Shown here: one piece after another, positions 8,749-29,987 of the stretch | Position numbering within the stretch: the stretch's first letter is position 1 | How the letters are laid out: each line of letters opens with the position of its first letter | DNA from: a virus | Taxonomy: Duplodnaviria; Heunggongvirae; Uroviricota; Caudoviricetes | Direction: 5' to 3' (one strand) | Length of the DNA: 36,833 nt | Virus record (IMG/VR): IMGVR_UViG_2571042372_000004 | Location: 1 to 36,833 of that record | The notes under the pieces: model-generated | Seen by the model: only the letters and a program-made list of their open reading frames with translations | Database searches by the model: none | What the model was told of the DNA's origin: nothing | Program-made: the position numbers and the translations under genes

Positions 8749-9939
8749 TTAATTGCTGTTAACCGAGGTGACCAGATTTGCCAGGTATTTATCGGTAATA
8801 CGCTGGCGCAGGGTCAGGTTTTCGAGAGGAGGCACCGGGGTATAGTCGTAGTCGATATACAGTTTTCCGGCCTTGAGGGTTTCCGCATCGTTGGATTCTT
8901 CGCTGAACCAGCAGGTCGCATCCACGATATAGCCGTTTGTTTTCAGCTCACGGAATTTGGCATTGATGCCGTCAACGATGTCGCGAATCAGCGTTGCGGT
9001 GATGGGCTTGTCCACCGCCCACATGTGCGCCTCAGCCATCGTATCGGCCAGCACCTGCGCGGTGCGGGTGTAGTTTTCAAAGAGGAACAGCGGGTCATCA
9101 GAGCAGGTACGGTTACCCCAGAAGCGGAAACCGTCACGGCGAATCAGCGTTGTGACGCCTGACTCATTCAGCAGGTCAGCATCGGTGCCGGACTCCTGCA
9201 AATCCCAGAATACAGATGCGCTGATGCCGGTAACACCGTTCACCCCGACGTTGGACAGCGTTTTATGCCAGCCCTGCTCCTGGTCGATTCTGGCACGCAG
9301 ACCCAGCGCACGGGCGGTGGCATACGCGGTGGCGGTGGTACTGGCAACCGTATCCCATGCGAGGAAATCCGGCCAGATGACCATCAGCTCACGCTGGCTG
9401 AAATTCTGACGGTAGGCTTTCACCTCGGAAATGGTTTTACAGCCCCATGCGCTGATATACCCGAAAGCGCGCAGCTTCTGACAGACTGATGCCAGTGCAA
9501 CAGCCACCTCTTTGGTGTCCAGTCCCGGCACGCCGAGAATACGCGGTTTAACACCGGTTACCGACTCCGCCGCCAGCAGGGCTTTCAGTCCGGTGTACTG
9601 ACCGTTTTCGTCGGTGGTGCCGATGATATTGGAAACGGTCTGCGCGAGTTTCGTTTCCTCGTCGTCGCCGGTGCCGTCTTCCACACGCACGACAACGGTG
9701 ACCGGTTTTGACTGGTCGGCGATGGCCTGCAACGATGCCGCCAGCGTGCCTTTTTTACCAGCCTTTGCAATTGCGCTCTGCACATTGGTAATCAGCACCG
9801 GTTTATTGATGGGGAAGGTTTCCGCATCCGCATCGCTGGCCGTGCAGACCATGCCGACAATGGCTGTGGATACGGTGGAAATGACGCGGGTGCCGTCGTT
9901 AATCTCCAGCACCTGCACGCCGTGATGATAGTCACTCAT
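8749..9939 (-). CDS. FI: contractile tail sheath protein gpFI
   Basis: 396-aa ORF; size and synteny of P2 FI. Confidence 0.9.
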   Translation of the reverse strand: MSDYHHGVQVLEINDGTRVISTVSTAIVGMVCTASDADAETFPINKPVLITNVQSAIAKAGKKGTLAASLQAIADQSKPVTVVVRVEDGTGDDEETKLAQTVSNIIGTTDENGQYTGLKALLAAESVTGVKPRILGVPGLDTKEVAVALASVCQKLRAFGYISAWGCKTISEVKAYRQNFSQRELMVIWPDFLAWDTVASTTATAYATARALGLRARIDQEQGWHKTLSNVGVNGVTGISASVFWDLQESGTDADLLNESGVTTLIRRDGFRFWGNRTCSDDPLFLFENYTRTAQVLADTMAEAHMWAVDKPITATLIRDIVDGINAKFRELKTNGYIVDATCWFSEESNDAETLKAGKLYIDYDYTPVPPLENLTLRQRITDKYLANLVTSVNSN

Positions 9940-10030
9940 CCGTTTAACTCCGTGGTTAATGGGTGCAACTATTTTCCATTGGGTAGTACATGAGACGCTA
10001 TTTGACCTGGCTGGTCAGTGGATGAAACAA

Positions 10031-10062
10031 CAGATAAAGAAAAGGCGGGCAATCTGCCCGCC
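10031..10062 (-). terminator. putative rho-independent terminator downstream of the 230-aa cargo gene
   Basis: Perfect 8-bp stem GGCGGGCA/TGCCCGCC (10044..10062) with a T-rich tract on the minus strand immediately after it (plus-strand AGATAAAGAAAA 10031..10043). Confidence 0.45.
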
Positions 10063-10198
10063 TGTCCTGATTTGTACACACTCATTTTCCGACTGACAAT
10101 TTACATAGCCAAAACGCTATCAAATCTGACTGCCTGTTTTGAGCGAAGAGGAACCTGAGATTGTGGTATGCTAATTTATGGGGAGCAGGTCAATTGTA

Positions 10199-10891
10199 TT
10201 AGTTATCTTTTTGCCTTTCTTTATCCCATTTCTTTACAGTGGTCTGATACCACTCTTCACGTGCTCGTTGTTCCTCTGCTCTGTCACTTGAATTATAGTT
10301 GTCTGTTTTAATTTTTTTGCTTCCCTGGGAAATCGGCCTCCAGTCTTCTCTAATCTTTTTCATCTGCTCAGCTATCTGTGTCATTGGACTCCTTGCACCT
10401 AAGTAGCTAACCCCCTCGAAAGAAGCCATATCATAAGAATACTCATTCCGCTCTCTTTCAGTTGAGCCCGGCTGTTTAGACCAGCTAATACTAACAGAAT
10501 AAACTTGATCTTTAATCTGGTCATACTTACAAAGACTGCTGTTGAGGGAATGGCCGTTTTTCAATACGCTAACCTTGCTAAATGGTATACCTTTATTTTT
10601 TCTATGTTCTGCATTAACCAGTGGGGGATTAAATCCGACTTCAATATCATAGGCTGGGGCATTTCCGGTATTAGCAATATTGATATCAAAATAAAAAGCA
10701 GCCCAAGAATTTGGTTCAAGAGTCACAACGACATGAGGTTGAACTGATGCGTCAACCATCCTTTTTGTCTCGTCTGCTAATAGCCTTGTTACTCTCCACA
10801 AGAAAAATGTAGCAACTGCTGTTAGCAATGCTGCCAAAGCGGAGATAAGTGTACTTACTGTGTTTATATGCTCTGCGATAAATTCGATCAT
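10199..10891 (-). CDS. membrane-anchored hypothetical protein (cargo gene at the P2 Z/fun position)
   Basis: 230-aa ORF, AT-rich. One predicted N-terminal transmembrane helix (VSTLISALAALLTAVATFFLW) followed by basic residues (RVTRLLADETKR), suggesting a cytoplasmic body. Highly charged C-terminal tail. No family recognised. Confidence 0.7.
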   Translation of the reverse strand: MIEFIAEHINTVSTLISALAALLTAVATFFLWRVTRLLADETKRMVDASVQPHVVVTLEPNSWAAFYFDINIANTGNAPAYDIEVGFNPPLVNAEHRKNKGIPFSKVSVLKNGHSLNSSLCKYDQIKDQVYSVSISWSKQPGSTERERNEYSYDMASFEGVSYLGARSPMTQIAEQMKKIREDWRPISQGSKKIKTDNYNSSDRAEEQRAREEWYQTTVKKWDKERQKDN

Positions 10892-11379
10892 GAGTTGTCC
10901 TTGGGGGCGTACTAATTGTTTTCAATACTAAAATAGCGCCGGGCTTGAAAAATTGCACACTTATGGTTCGATTTACCTCAACAGTTAAGGCTTCTACTTC
11001 CCCCATGCACCTCACCCAGCCCAAGACGGTATGAGGTCTGACAAAGAACTTCCTGACACTTGAAAACGAGGCAACGGCTAGGGTTTCTCGTAGGGCAAGG
11101 ATTGAATACGAAGCCTGTATATTGCTCCGCAAACGCTGCTGAGGGCAGTTTAAATGTTGGGCGTTTATGTAGCCTTTCACTCACCAGCATGAGTTCAATG
11201 TCTGTGAGTTACCGACAACAATATAAAGAGGGTGGCATCATATATCCAAGCTAGAGTCAAATCCTCCAACTGGTTTTATGATCAGTGTCAATTGTTTGAT
11301 TATTGAACGTTTACGAAGCAGCACGGGAGCCATATAACTAATGGGCAGGTATAAGCCTGTATCACGAGGAATCAGTAAA

Positions 11380-11559
11380 ATGGCTGATGATAAGACCAAA
11401 ATCGGTACCCCTGACAATGATTTAATAAGTATCAAACAGGATTACGAGAGACGTGATTGGGCTGAAAAGTTTGGAGTTAGCGAGGCCAAACTTGTTCAAG
11501 CCGTACAGGCTGTAGGTCATTCGGCTAAGAAAGTACAGGCATGGCTTAAAGACCATTAA
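11380..11559 (+). CDS. small DUF3606-like protein
   Basis: Start set at ATG 11380 with GAGGA RBS 9 nt upstream (the ORF track begins at 11341). 59-aa product contains DWAEKFGVSEAKLVQAVQAVGHSAKKVQAWL, which resembles the DUF3606 signature as I recall it. AT-rich. Confidence 0.6.
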   Translation: MADDKTKIGTPDNDLISIKQDYERRDWAEKFGVSEAKLVQAVQAVGHSAKKVQAWLKDH

Positions 11560-11565
11560 TATATG

Positions 11566-11589
11566 AGCGCCTTTCTAGGCGCTTTTTTC
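11566..11589 (+). terminator. rho-independent terminator after the DUF3606-like gene
   Basis: Hairpin AGCGCC-tttcta-GGCGCT followed by TTTTTT, 7 nt after the stop codon. Confidence 0.6.
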
Positions 11590-11611
11590 TTTGTCCTTTG
11601 GGAGATGATTT

Positions 11612-11890
11612 ATGGCTAATAATTTATTTATTACTTACGACCTCATTAAAACGAAAGATTATGCGGCTGTGTATGATGCAATTAAATCTTTAGGAAATTG
11701 GGCTTTAACAACTGAATCGAACTGGTATGTTAACTGTAGTTACTCTGCCGAGGATGCAGCCAAAATTGTGAGGGCGGTCATGGATAGTGATGATAAGCTT
11801 ATTGTTGTAGACGCAACCAATAACTCAGCTTATTGGTACAATCTCTCAGATGAAGTTAGTAACCAAATTCTGACTGAGTGGAACAAGTAA
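11612..11890 (+). CDS. hypothetical protein (92 aa), cargo gene at the Z/fun position
   Basis: 92-aa ORF, AT-rich, with GGGAGATGA-type RBS upstream. No recognisable family. Followed by a strong hairpin. Confidence 0.6.
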   Translation: MANNLFITYDLIKTKDYAAVYDAIKSLGNWALTTESNWYVNCSYSAEDAAKIVRAVMDSDDKLIVVDATNNSAYWYNLSDEVSNQILTEWNK

Positions 11891-11892
11891 TT

Positions 11893-11915
11893 AAAGGGGG
11901 TGGACAGCCCCCTTT
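11893..11915 (+). terminator. stem-loop or putative terminator after the 92-aa gene
   Basis: AAAGGGGG-tggacag-CCCCCTTT perfect 8-bp stem, 2 nt after the stop codon. The U-run is weak, so this may be a bidirectional or processing hairpin. Confidence 0.4.
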
Positions 11916-12110
11916 AATTCAGAAACTATCATGATTGAAACATTAAATATACTGGGTTAATTCTTTCATCCTTGCTCCCTTGCTATATGTCCTGAAAGCG
12001 TCCTTTTTAGCCTTCTGCTCAGTATATCCGGTAATGGCACAGAGCGGACTGCCAGATTAGGCTTTACTCTGTGCCATAGATATGTAAGCTCACACCAGAG
12101 TTCATACAAC

Positions 12111-12638
12111 TTATTGCGGCATTTCCGGCCATTCAGGATTTGCAGGATCCACACGACTGACCAGAACGCTGTAGCGTTCCCATGCCTCCAGTCGACTGCG
12201 CTCCTCATCTGTTGCCATATTCAGCCTGACAGCGCGCTCCAGTGGCAAAATCACGGATTCGGCTTCGGAAAGCAAAGTTGCCTTTTGTGATTCTGCCAGT
12301 TGCTGCTGTTCGTCTGCCGTATAAATCCGCTTAATCACTGCACCATCCTTAAACATCCATTTACCTGAGTCATCAGCACGCCGGTTGGCAGTAATATCAG
12401 GAACCTCAACAACGCTAAAACCTTCAGGATTAAGCGTTGAAGCATCTCTGGTGATAGCGACAATAATATTATTTTCATCGTAAACAATCTTTATTGTGTC
12501 TGGCTGAAAGTTCTTCACTTCCTCATACCAGTTTTTTCCGTCCTCAGAGTAAAGCCAGATAACTCCGTGTTTCTTTGTTAACTCATACTGTTCCAGTGTT
12601 TTAGCATTACCCGCTTTTATGTTCTTTAAGTGCATCAT
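12111..12638 (-). CDS. G: tail fibre assembly protein gpG
   Basis: 175-aa ORF immediately downstream of H; P2 G size and synteny. Confidence 0.85.
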
Positions 12639-17317: not shown

Positions 17318-18073
17318 TTAGTTGTAGCACTTCTCTATAATCTTCATACACTCCTCATGAGCTAAATCATGGCTGTCAAATTCTTTATTAAAAAAGAAGA
17401 AAAACGCCTTCTTAACCTGAGGCATTTCAATAAAAATAAATTCATCAACCTTATGAAAGAAATGAAAACTCTTGTTTGATGTTTCAAAAACCATCAAAGA
17501 ATTATGTTTTTTATCCTTCCATTTCGACATCAGATTGCGTCGCGATTTTCGTATAATCCTGAAGACATCCCCCGGCGTCGTATCGACATTCCCCCAAAAC
17601 ATTGCAACCGGGAAGTTTGCAAGGAACGGGATATAATCACCACCTTTATACCTGAGAAAGCGGTTCCGCAAATCCATTAATTGCAACTTAAAACCCATGT
17701 ATTGCAACCACCATATGATGCAATCATACTCATAATCTGTTAACTCCTCTCCCCTCTTTTCCGTAAGAAATTTCTTCAGGTTATACTCAAACACTCCCAG
17801 CAAATCAGAATTGCACACTCTGCATGCTGGTACAGTGGCTTTAATGTAATGAGTTGACTGATTATTCTTTTTATTAATTAAAGATTTTTCAGCATTTGAC
17901 TCAAAGGCCCACTGAGGAATAATGTGCTCACGAGTAATATCGTCAGAACTCCCGCATAACACACATATATCAGCATTATGGTCAGCAATAATACAATCCA
18001 TAACTTTCTTTTGAGAGTGCTTTACTCTTTTTCTCAAAATAGAAAACTTTTCATCCATAAACACCCGTCTCAT
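17318..18073 (-). CDS. HNH nuclease-domain protein (AT-rich moron between S and V, the P2 orf30 position)
   Basis: 251-aa ORF, very AT-rich. N-terminal HNH pattern CVLCG...DITREHIIPQW...N...ACRVCN (two CxxC pairs flanking a conserved His). Start ATG overlaps the gpS stop (ATGA), implying translational coupling within the late operon. C-terminal ~150 aa unassigned. Confidence 0.75.
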   Translation of the reverse strand: MRRVFMDEKFSILRKRVKHSQKKVMDCIIADHNADICVLCGSSDDITREHIIPQWAFESNAEKSLINKKNNQSTHYIKATVPACRVCNSDLLGVFEYNLKKFLTEKRGEELTDYEYDCIIWWLQYMGFKLQLMDLRNRFLRYKGGDYIPFLANFPVAMFWGNVDTTPGDVFRIIRKSRRNLMSKWKDKKHNSLMVFETSNKSFHFFHKVDEFIFIEMPQVKKAFFFFFNKEFDSHDLAHEECMKIIEKCYN

Positions 18074-27767: not shown

Positions 27768-29987
27768 ATGGAACTTAAATTAAAGAATATAACCAGCTAT
27801 AAGAAAGATAGCTTCACGACTCTTAATCTCTCAAAAAAAATTAATATACTTTATGGTCACAACGGTTGTGGAAAATCAACCATATCTAATTATTTCTATA
27901 ATCCAAATAACACGGACTACAAAGAATGCGAATGTCCTTTCATAGATACTTTTCGCCTATTGGTTTATAATACTAAGTTTGTTGAGGATAATTTTTATAA
28001 TGCAAAAGAGCAAAAAGGAGTATTCACTTTAAGTAAGGAAAATGCTGACATTGAAAAAGAATTGTTGGAAAAAGAAGCTATAAGACAAGACCTACTTACA
28101 AAATACAAAGATAAAAAAAACGTTATTGAGCGTTTAATTAAAGATAAAAACAATAAAGAAAATGAATATATTGATTTAATATGGAATAAAGCAGAACCTT
28201 TTAGATCATCTGACTTAAAGAACTTGATGAAAGGTCAGTTAGGAAGCAAGAGATCATTTTATGAGCAAGTTAAAAAAGCCCCTCAAACCACTGACGTTAA
28301 CATCGAGTCACTTGCTCAAGAATATAGTATTCTTTTAAAGAACAAAGATAAATTCACTGCATCAATTACACCTTTAGAAAAATATATCATTTCAGAAAAA
28401 GATAAAGAATCTTTATCCACTCCGATTATAGACTCAAGTAATAGCTATTTGTCAGAAACAATTAAACAACTTCAAAACCTTGACTGGGTGAAAAAAGGGA
28501 AGGAATTATATTTAAATGGCACATGTTGCCCATTCTGCCAAGAAGACACTATTAAAGACAAATTTTTAGAAGCAATTGAATCTATCTTTGATGATAGCTA
28601 CTCCAAGAAAGTTGACCAAATACGCATTATCAGATCGTCTTATGAATCCGCTACCATAGATAATTTAAGAAAAATAAAACAAGAGATTTCATCTTGTGAA
28701 TTAATCACCTCAAAAGAAAAAGATATAACATCATCTCATATAGCGTTATTAGAGGAAATAGCAAACAAAAACTTAAAATTGATGTTAGATAAAATCAATA
28801 ACCCATCTATATCTATTATTTTGGAATCCAATAGCGACCTTGAAGCAAAGGTAGTTGATAATATAGCAGAGTACAACAATAGAATTAAAGAAATAAATAT
28901 TAAAGTCAAACAATTTAAGGATAGTGAAAAGTCTATACGTTACAAAATATGGGGAGCAATAAGAGAATTATGCAACGCTGAGTTTGAAGCTTTCTCAAAA
29001 TATGAGAATGACTATAAAATCATTTATGAACAATATCAACTTGAATTAAATACCATAAAAGAACAAGGAGATAACAATAGCAAAAAGATCAAAGAGCTAC
29101 GCGATCAAATATCTAACATTGATGCAACCATAGATTCTATAAATCAACGTCTAAAATTATTAGGAATTTATGGTTTTAGCATAAAAAAACACACTGAGAG
29201 CAATGATAAATATATTATATCACGTTCTGAAAACACAACAGATAAAGATGTATACAGATCTCTTAGCGAGGGTGAAAAAACTTTAATTACCTTTCTCTAC
29301 TTTCTGGAATGCTGTAAAGGTAAGACAGATAAGAATGATACGGATATGCGAGATGTATTTATCGTTATTGATGATCCAATATCCAGCCTCTCTCAAAATT
29401 ATGTGTACGATATTGCTTCAATAATTCACCATGAAATAATCAACAATAACAAAGCAGTAAAGAAAACATTAATACTCACACATAACCTTTATTTCTTTCA
29501 TGAACTTATCAAATTAGCTCCTAGAAGCAAAGAAGATAGAACATTCAAGCGTGATTATTATCTTGGACGAGTAACAAAAAATGAATATAGCATAATTACA
29601 GAAATAGAGAAAAAGAGCATTCAGAATGAATACCAGTCCCTATGGCAAGTATTAAAAGATGCGAAGGATGGAAGGGTAAATAAAGTTATAATACCTAACA
29701 TCATGAGAAATATACTGGAATACTACTTCGCATTTGTTCATAGAACGGATGCATTACAGACAGAGTTAAATAAACTTGCTAGCGATGATAAGAATAATGA
29801 TTTTAGAGCATTTTATAGATACATTAATAGAGGTTCCCATTCAGATGCAGTTAATATCACAGACATGGGAGATATATCTCCAGAGAAATATATGGAGCAA
29901 CTAAAAACCATTTTTCGTATGACTGGTGATGAAAAACATTATTTGAAAATGATGGACGAAGAGGAAGAGAAAACCGTTACCGCTTAG
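27768..29987 (+). CDS. ABC/Rad50-like ATPase with coiled-coil CxxC insert and C-terminal putative nuclease domain (RloC/PrrC-like); defence candidate at the tin/old position
   Basis: 739-aa ORF, extremely AT-rich, GAGG RBS. Walker A GHNGCGKST; ABC signature LSEGEK; Walker B DVFIVIDDP; H-loop-like LILTHNLYF. A long K/E-rich predicted coiled coil between Walker A and signature carries CPFC (zinc-hook-like). C-terminal segment has R-x3-E (RNILE) plus downstream His residues, reminiscent of the PrrC/RloC anticodon-nuclease triad. Confidence 0.85.
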   Translation: MELKLKNITSYKKDSFTTLNLSKKINILYGHNGCGKSTISNYFYNPNNTDYKECECPFIDTFRLLVYNTKFVEDNFYNAKEQKGVFTLSKENADIEKELLEKEAIRQDLLTKYKDKKNVIERLIKDKNNKENEYIDLIWNKAEPFRSSDLKNLMKGQLGSKRSFYEQVKKAPQTTDVNIESLAQEYSILLKNKDKFTASITPLEKYIISEKDKESLSTPIIDSSNSYLSETIKQLQNLDWVKKGKELYLNGTCCPFCQEDTIKDKFLEAIESIFDDSYSKKVDQIRIIRSSYESATIDNLRKIKQEISSCELITSKEKDITSSHIALLEEIANKNLKLMLDKINNPSISIILESNSDLEAKVVDNIAEYNNRIKEINIKVKQFKDSEKSIRYKIWGAIRELCNAEFEAFSKYENDYKIIYEQYQLELNTIKEQGDNNSKKIKELRDQISNIDATIDSINQRLKLLGIYGFSIKKHTESNDKYIISRSENTTDKDVYRSLSEGEKTLITFLYFLECCKGKTDKNDTDMRDVFIVIDDPISSLSQNYVYDIASIIHHEIINNNKAVKKTLILTHNLYFFHELIKLAPRSKEDRTFKRDYYLGRVTKNEYSIITEIEKKSIQNEYQSLWQVLKDAKDGRVNKVIIPNIMRNILEYYFAFVHRTDALQTELNKLASDDKNNDFRAFYRYINRGSHSDAVNITDMGDISPEKYMEQLKTIFRMTGDEKHYLKMMDEEEEKTVTA

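Follow-up and report, generated by a model that had tools for sequence, protein, structure and literature searches.

What does a long intergenic gap between two cargo genes of a prophage encode, if anything? The window, meaning the whole 36,833-nucleotide stretch of viral DNA analysed here, is a P2-like (Peduovirus) prophage, and the gap separates a 230-aa gene on the minus strand from a DUF3606 gene on the plus strand. The original prediction allowed for divergent promoters together with a structured RNA (an antitoxin, regulatory or decoy RNA), or else for a decayed gene remnant. Comparison with chromosomal islands and other prophages makes us highly confident that the gap is a recombination or deletion scar composed of relic gene fragments, and is neither an RNA gene nor a protein gene.

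The gap and its surroundings

The 5' end of the 230-aa gene at 10891 and the DUF3606 start at ATG 11380 define a gap of 488 bp, from 10892 to 11379. The start at 11380 is preceded by a Shine-Dalgarno sequence, GAGGAA (11366-11371, 8 nt 5' of the ATG), and RefSeq annotates an identical 59-aa DUF3606 product. An alternative in-frame ATG at 11341 was rejected, as no ribosome-binding site precedes it and the Pfam match already covers the 59-aa form from residue 4 on. The features discussed below, with pieces of the gap lettered A to D, are as follows.

10140..12094, no strand: whole transferable module, 94-96% identity outside P2
10199..10891, minus strand: 230-aa cargo gene (N-terminal transmembrane helix; RefSeq 'DUF8453', phrog_11802) bordering the gap on the left
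10892-11025: piece A, made up of the 230-aa gene's leader and of island backbone whose usual place is ahead of a serine recombinase
10892..10938, minus strand: proximal leader of the 230-aa gene, with Shine-Dalgarno AAGGA at 10898-10902; travels with the gene
10939..11025, no strand: backbone part of relic A, which in intact islands separates the left accessory slot from a serine recombinase gene
11032..11116, plus strand: relic B, a 12-nt leader and about 24 codons of a pre-capsid gene (phrog_21723), with nucleotide homology to islands L014 and L044
11117..11119, no strand: B/C deletion junction with GTA microhomology; long forms have 312 bp more here
11117..11254, plus strand: relic C, 3' end of an endonuclease VII gene (PF02945, phrog_423), its final 46 codons and stop codon
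11220..11248, minus strand: sigma-70-like match, antisense inside relic C; its -10 is the 'minus_10_signal' of GenBank AJ512682
11255-11379: piece D, putative promoter and leader of the DUF3606/92-aa operon, with homology from 11269 on
11269..11286, no strand: degenerate palindrome ACTGGT-N6-ATCAGT, a candidate operator
11310..11338, plus strand: candidate promoter of the DUF3606/92-aa operon, with -35 TTTACG at 11310-11315, a 17-nt spacer and -10 TATAAC at 11333-11338
11380..11559, plus strand: DUF3606 gene (59 aa), right flank of the gap; Pfam PF12244, E 2e-18
11612..11890, plus strand: 92-aa gene (phrog_1090), co-oriented with the DUF3606 gene
11931..12056, minus strand: tyrosine integrase relic, about 45 C-terminal codons with an internal stop; right end of the former island

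The cargo slot that holds the gap is bordered by the tail sheath gene (8749-9939, minus strand) and the tail-fibre assembly gene G (12111-12638, minus strand). It is the non-essential Z/fun variable region of P2-like phages: the DNA inside is foreign to P2, P2 backbone borders it on both sides, and other P2-like phages match the flanks only. Two variable loci in P2-like phages are attributed to Nilsson, Karlsson & Haggard-Ljungquist (2004), as cited in PMC9122126. Across its entire length the cargo is 99.2% identical to GenBank AJ512682 ('P2-EC53 proviral Z-region, ORF1') and it is 99.6% identical to that of phage R18C; it was found in 99 of 5,426 complete E. coli genomes. The AJ512682 record bears annotations for the 230-aa ORF1, for its ribosome-binding site and for a 'minus_10_signal' within the gap. 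It annotates nothing further there, and the DUF3606 and 92-aa genes carry no annotation. What is new here relative to that record is the relic origin of the gap, the existence of a long-form intermediate, and occurrence outside P2. The left and right 'inverted repeats' of AJ512682, compared by blastn-short, are not repeats of each other and share 5-7-nt matches only. Literature searches returned no mention of 'P2-EC53' and nothing useful on DUF3606, and a search of plasmids gave no relevant match.

Other parts of the prophage also carry cargo. The second cargo hotspot of P2, which separates the portal and replication genes (window 27768-29987), holds a gene for a 739-aa AAA_13 ATPase (Pfam E 2e-102), in place of which a close relative of the prophage has a TIR-domain gene. 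A 251-aa ORF without a Pfam match (17318-18073) sits between baseplate gene V and a morphogenesis gene; it is missing at that position in the close relative L019, which points to another small cargo insertion.

In size and composition the gap is as the original prediction described it, a spacer of some 490 bp that is not notably AT-rich. RefSeq annotates a 99.7%-identical prophage, and there the equivalent gap measures 491 bp, longer than any other intergenic gap. Those next in length (466, 329, 292 and 259 bp) all belong to cargo or early regions; structural genes are separated by no more than about 100 bp. At 44.5%, the GC content of the gap exceeds that of each of the three cargo genes (40.0%, 42.8% and 36.9%) and is below the 49.9% of the whole window. 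Relics B and C have GC contents of 48% and 45%, and the higher value for the gap follows from their derivation from coding DNA.

The short ORFs inside the gap (29-142 aa, both strands) had been described as looking spurious. Pfam and PADLOC scans assigned none of them to a family, and two minus-strand ORFs that span position 11117 are broken in long-form copies. The plus-strand ORF 11060-11254 is a chimera whose end is a genuine endonuclease VII relic. In favour of a small protein made from a short ORF such as this 64-aa chimera, the frame is open in the window, and a 3-bp indel polymorphism keeps it. Against this, it would start at a TTG with no ribosome-binding site, it joins a B stretch read out of context to an endonuclease VII tail that lacks the catalytic core, the chimeric frame is absent from long-form copies, and it belongs to no Pfam or PADLOC family. 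We regard a small protein as scarcely credible.

Origin of the pieces in chromosomal islands

A sensitive DNA search with the gap alone gave different relatives for its different parts. The pieces were traced by comparison with intact islands, represented by L008 (E. coli E2348/69), L015, L014 and L009. From the left, these islands consist of a tRNA-Leu gene, the left accessory slot, backbone A, a serine recombinase gene, a DEAD helicase gene and several small genes; the right part continues with the pre-capsid gene, the capsid gene, an HNH gene, two small genes, the endonuclease VII gene, the right accessory slot and an integrase gene on the minus strand. The window has the 230-aa gene, A, B, C, D with the DUF3606 and 92-aa genes, and the integrase relic, in the order and orientation of the intact islands. 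Genes of AbiJ, DUF3800, TIR and YafO type occupy the accessory slots of the donor islands, which also carry genes for an integrase, a DEAD helicase, a major head protein (phrog_267), an HNH protein and endonuclease VII. No portal gene, terminase gene or helper was identified for them. By gene content the donor islands appear satellite-like.

Homologues of the 230-aa gene occupy the left accessory slot of islands beside tRNA-Leu (leuX islands; L004, L005/L008, L016). Piece A is 80-92% identical to DNA upstream of such homologues in E. coli leuX islands and Kosakonia (L004, L005, L006 and L016 compared), and the homology ends abruptly at 11025 in every comparison. In intact islands A runs on into about 460 bp of non-coding DNA and then the serine recombinase gene (Resolvase domain). 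Island L006, which has other cargo in the slot, shares 10939-11025 only and has lost 10892-10938; 10892-10938 therefore belongs to the 230-aa gene and 10939-11025 to the island backbone. Piece A was also considered as one of a pair of sites for the serine recombinase, and this was rejected because it is single-copy in L008, L015, L016 and the window.

The non-coding gap of about 460 bp between the left slot and the serine recombinase gene of the islands (3054-3515 in L008, the E2348/69 leuX island; present in L004, L006 and L016 too) shows conservation from E. coli to Kosakonia. Within it lies a perfect hairpin, CCCAGCC-N3-GGCTGGG, and Rfam gave no match. The A/B junction of the window falls in the position of this hairpin.

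Relic B is 83% identical at the nucleotide level to L014 5001-5079 and L044 1319-1396. Its start codon is mutated from ATG to AAG at 11044-11046. A tblastn search with the L014 pre-capsid protein matches the Pantoea copy of the module at 74% identity (E 2e-6). In L044, the homologue of B and the endonuclease VII gene are collinear and lie 2.6 kb apart.

Relic C matches island endonuclease VII at 59% amino-acid identity by tblastn (E 2e-8), with the stop at the identical position, and at 73% nucleotide identity by blastn. The segment that remains matches the family. The catalytic or zinc-binding core (residues 63-109 in the island proteins, ~18-66 in the profile) is absent, residues 98-142 alone being recognisable, and in-frame stops occur upstream. 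C is an endonuclease VII relic and not a gene.

A less decayed version of this region exists. In Pantoea leporis (L017) and in three viral contigs (L032, L033, L043), the module is present at 94-95% identity with 312 extra bp at the B/C junction. The extra DNA extends C into a nearly full-length endonuclease VII pseudogene, in which residues 1-11 lie in one frame and residues 9-123 and beyond in another, with a 4-codon deletion; the long-form copy aligns over residues 1-123 at 72%. All three genes are intact in long-form copies despite the 312-bp indel in the gap centre. Loss of the DNA between two GTA triplets at the junction turned the long form into the short form seen in the window. The original prediction's option of a decayed gene remnant is thereby borne out for some 220 bp in the middle of the gap, which are fragments of two island genes with a less-decayed intermediate.

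Piece D has a different set of relatives. From 11269 on, it is 82-91% identical to DNA upstream of DUF3606/92-aa genes, or of 92-aa genes, in the integrase-bearing islands L013 and L007 and in viral contig L039. The integrase relic matches the L007 integrase at 60% identity (tblastn, E 4.5e-12). In native islands the palindrome of D is perfect, ACTGGT-N6-ACCAGT, and lies beside a divergent 82-aa gene (phrog_5079). In all copies of the module the palindrome is degenerate and the 82-aa phrog_5079 gene is absent, from which we infer a former operator that is now decaying.

Several observations concern the genes downstream. In L007 the 92-aa gene directly follows the same promoter, without a DUF3606 gene. 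In the window, despite the operon-like look of the two genes, a terminator-like hairpin with a T-run lies between them at 11565-11584. The 92-aa protein has sub-threshold, nearly full-length Cas2-like matches (Pfam CRISPR_Cas2, E 0.15; PADLOC Cas2_II, E 0.019), which may reflect a Cas2/VapD-like fold.

The two cargo units occur apart in native islands. Islands L005/L008 and L016 have the 230-aa gene without the DUF3606/92-aa pair, and islands L013 and L007 and viral contig L039 have the DUF3606/92-aa side without the 230-aa gene. This separation argues against a shared regulatory hub. Because the units come from different accessory slots, their functions are probably independent and they do not form one divergent system.

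Promoters, constraint and the question of an RNA

The predicted promoter of the DUF3606/92-aa operon is the candidate TTTACG-17-TATAAC in D. The pattern TTTACG-17-TATAA(C/G/T) is invariant in 31 copies representing 11 sequence variants, save that the spacer is 18 nt in L007; these copies include L007, L013 and L039, where coding DNA is only 69-82% identical. The candidate thus combines sigma-70-like spacing (within 16-18 nt) with conservation and a downstream ribosome-binding site.

On the other side, the promoter of the 230-aa gene most likely lies within A, the piece that accompanies the gene in native islands. Inspection by eye gives only a weak candidate there at best, TTAACT at 10988-10983 and CATAAG at 10965-10960 with 17 nt between them. 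The divergent promoters that had been proposed are plausible: the D side has a sigma-70-like site invariant in 31 copies, but the 230-aa side has no confident site.

The one sigma-70-like match that a promoter scan returned in the region is the antisense site 11248-11220, and if the 230-aa gene were transcribed from it, the gap would serve as a regulatory 5' untranslated leader of about 320 nt. Its -10 hexamer coincides with the GenBank 'minus_10_signal', and TATATT is present in all copies examined. A single match, however, is fewer than the 5.0 expected from shuffled sequence. Of the 24 other copies, 21 have a spacer of 20 nt between -35 and -10; it is 17 nt in the remaining 3 and in the window. 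The position of the site is within the endonuclease VII relic, and the native leuX-island context of the 230-aa gene lacks it, the upstream DNA there being different beyond 11025; in long forms it is 312 bp further off; and the leader it would create gives no fold signal. The site is probably not a conserved promoter, and we think it improbable that the 230-aa gene depends on it.

Divergence of the gap was set against synonymous (pS) and nonsynonymous (pN) differences in the flanking genes.

Window against non-P2 prophage copies: gap divergence 5.1-5.3%; flanking-gene pS 0.028-0.073; pN 0-0.018
Window against long-form copies: gap divergence 8-10%; flanking-gene pS 0.028-0.090; pN 0-0.033

Since gap divergence is close to the synonymous rate of the flanking genes, the middle of the gap is evolving roughly neutrally. 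B is the fastest-diverging piece, at 7.6-15%, and the gap centre tolerates the 312-bp indel as well as a 3-bp ATG/CAT slip. The stretch 11269-11315, which takes in the palindrome and the start of the promoter, is 91% identical to L007, against 69% for the adjoining 92-aa coding DNA. In these comparisons the core of D is the sole part of the gap with a conservation signal. The persistence of the short form in at least 99 E. coli genomes is compatible with neutrality and no proof of it. At the slip site itself, a trinucleotide at window 11235, the window and 3 of 24 other copies are one unit shorter than the remaining 21.

The proposal of a functional structured or regulatory RNA (antitoxin, decoy or sRNA) acting on a flanking cargo gene has in its favour the length of the gap, its being less AT-rich than its neighbours, and its place between cargo genes without an assigned function. 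The Rfam 15 covariance models were searched at E<=10 against window 9900-12200 and two homologous island loci. The only match in 10892-11379 was a partial snoRNA of 27 nt, at 15.5 bits against a gathering threshold of 95, which is a chance match. Beyond the gap the search returned hairpin and terminator look-alikes only, and in the homologous island regions nothing. Absence from Rfam is compatible with an undescribed RNA, but the gap is also no more stable when folded than shuffled sequence: z is +0.71 for the plus strand and -0.16 for the minus strand over its whole length, and every 120-nt sliding window on both strands gives a z above -1. The sole standouts in folding are the flanking terminators at 10043-10063 and 11889-11919, with z from -3.8 to -4.6. 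A repeat search of the gap gave 10-13-mers at chance level and no direct-repeat family longer than 12 nt. A type III antitoxin of the ToxI kind would have tandem repeats of about 30-40 nt and a terminator; the gap has no such repeats, and no terminator-like site lies inside it. Copies of the gap differ by 2-10% only, too little for covariation to show; its pieces have different homologues elsewhere, and there is no candidate helix in which compensatory changes could be compared.

The alignment with homologous islands turned up the pre-capsid and endonuclease VII relics; the middle of the gap diverges about neutrally, and the conservation signal is confined to the core of D. Neutral-rate divergence, tolerance of both the 312-bp indel and the 3-bp slip, and the coding origin of the pieces, which already explains the higher GC, add to the lack of any Rfam, fold or repeat signal. 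The structured RNA is not upheld, and we judge a functional RNA in the gap to be very improbable.

A probable collapsed island as mobile cargo

Outside P2, the module 10140-12094 was found in a non-P2 prophage, a Pantoea chromosome and viral contigs. The non-P2 prophage copies (L010, L011, L034-L038) have DUF977 and DUF1627 neighbours. In Pantoea leporis, the long-form module (L017 5105-5404) lies among metabolic genes and adjoins a 99-aa fragment of a second integrase; this copy is a degenerate chromosomal island remnant and not a P2 prophage. The junctions within the module are identical in P2, the non-P2 prophage, the Pantoea chromosome and the viral contigs, so the composite is older than its insertion into P2.

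The history we favour is that the cargo, from about 10140 to 12094, represents the collapsed skeleton of a satellite-like integrative island. Internal deletions would have removed the island core and joined its two accessory ends, leaving between them backbone A, 24 pre-capsid codons (B), 46 endonuclease VII codons (C) and then the native D promoter and leader. Working parts would remain only at the ends of the gap. On the left these would be the ribosome-binding site and a promoter of the 230-aa gene within about 135 bp, and on the right the TTTACG-17-TATAAC promoter and the GAGGAA ribosome-binding site for DUF3606; the central 240 bp or so, B and C included, would be inert debris. Two independent cargo units would then be transcribed divergently from the ends of the gap.

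Serial internal deletion of one island is the simplest history. The gap would still be relic DNA if two cassettes from two different islands had been joined, each with its flanking scraps, and some of the evidence leans that way: A to C match islands of leuX type, while ygeQ-adjacent islands (L007/L013) are the nearest relatives of D, the DUF3606/92-aa genes and the integrase relic, and none of the 5,426 complete E. coli genomes has an intact donor in which endonuclease VII adjoins DUF3606. Yet each of the five pieces keeps the order and orientation that it has in the canonical island layout. The junctions common to P2, the non-P2 prophage, Pantoea and the viral contigs place formation of the composite before the P2 insertion, and an integrase relic only 60% identical to the L007 integrase implies that the true donor is unsampled. 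A two-island origin is a serious possibility that we nonetheless hold to be the less likely one.

The ends of the module bear on how it moved. The left end is sharp at 10140 (10140-10159, TGAGCGAAGAG...) and identical in the P2 Z slot, the non-P2 prophage, the Pantoea chromosome and a viral contig; the right end varies, at 12041, 12050 or 12094. A AGAGCGGAC-like motif occurs near both ends (window 10140-10159 and 12041-12049), and GACTGCC is found in the P2 flank at 10127-10133 and again at 12046-12052. These features may be the trace of site-specific or microhomology-mediated capture. A bolder reading takes the 1.9-kb 'mini-island' to be a cassette that is still transferable, or else supposes that transcription of its relic stretch yields an antisense RNA or long leader which modulates the membrane-protein gene. 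We rate this as distinctly improbable; if the cassette version were true, satellites would have their two accessory slots fused and carried together, by a site-specific mechanism, to hotspots in helper phages.

With this result a candidate non-coding RNA is struck off the list. Where phage cargo slots contain long gaps of normal GC, these can turn out to be remnants of coding DNA and not RNA genes, a point to bear in mind in any hunt for new RNAs in such gaps. The locus is also a tangible example of cargo passing between satellite-like islands and P2-like or other prophages across genera (E. coli, Pantoea and Kosakonia), with a visible deletion series. Cargo common to satellites and P2-like phages has been described by Rousset et al. 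2022 (PMC9122126).

Among known systems, the likeness to type III ToxI-like RNAs and type I antisense RNAs is one of position only, a non-coding stretch beside a gene for a small membrane protein. Unlike those antitoxins, the gap has no tandem repeats, no stable or conserved structure and no Rfam match, and it diverges neutrally. With the Z/fun region of AJ512682 it shares the slot, from the tail sheath gene to G, and cargo at 99.2% identity. The donor islands resemble phage satellites and PICI-like islands in having the phrog_267 head protein, HNH, endonuclease VII, integrase and variable accessory slots, whereas the window holds only the debris of such an island. A further parallel is with pseudogenes and deletion scars in prophage and island cargo regions, which likewise show truncated coding sequence, a lost start, in-frame stops, a frameshifted intermediate, a microhomology junction and neutral divergence. 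Nothing essential separates the gap from such decay, except that here the fragments keep the order of a whole island, and the cargo of about 2 kb reads like an island in miniature.
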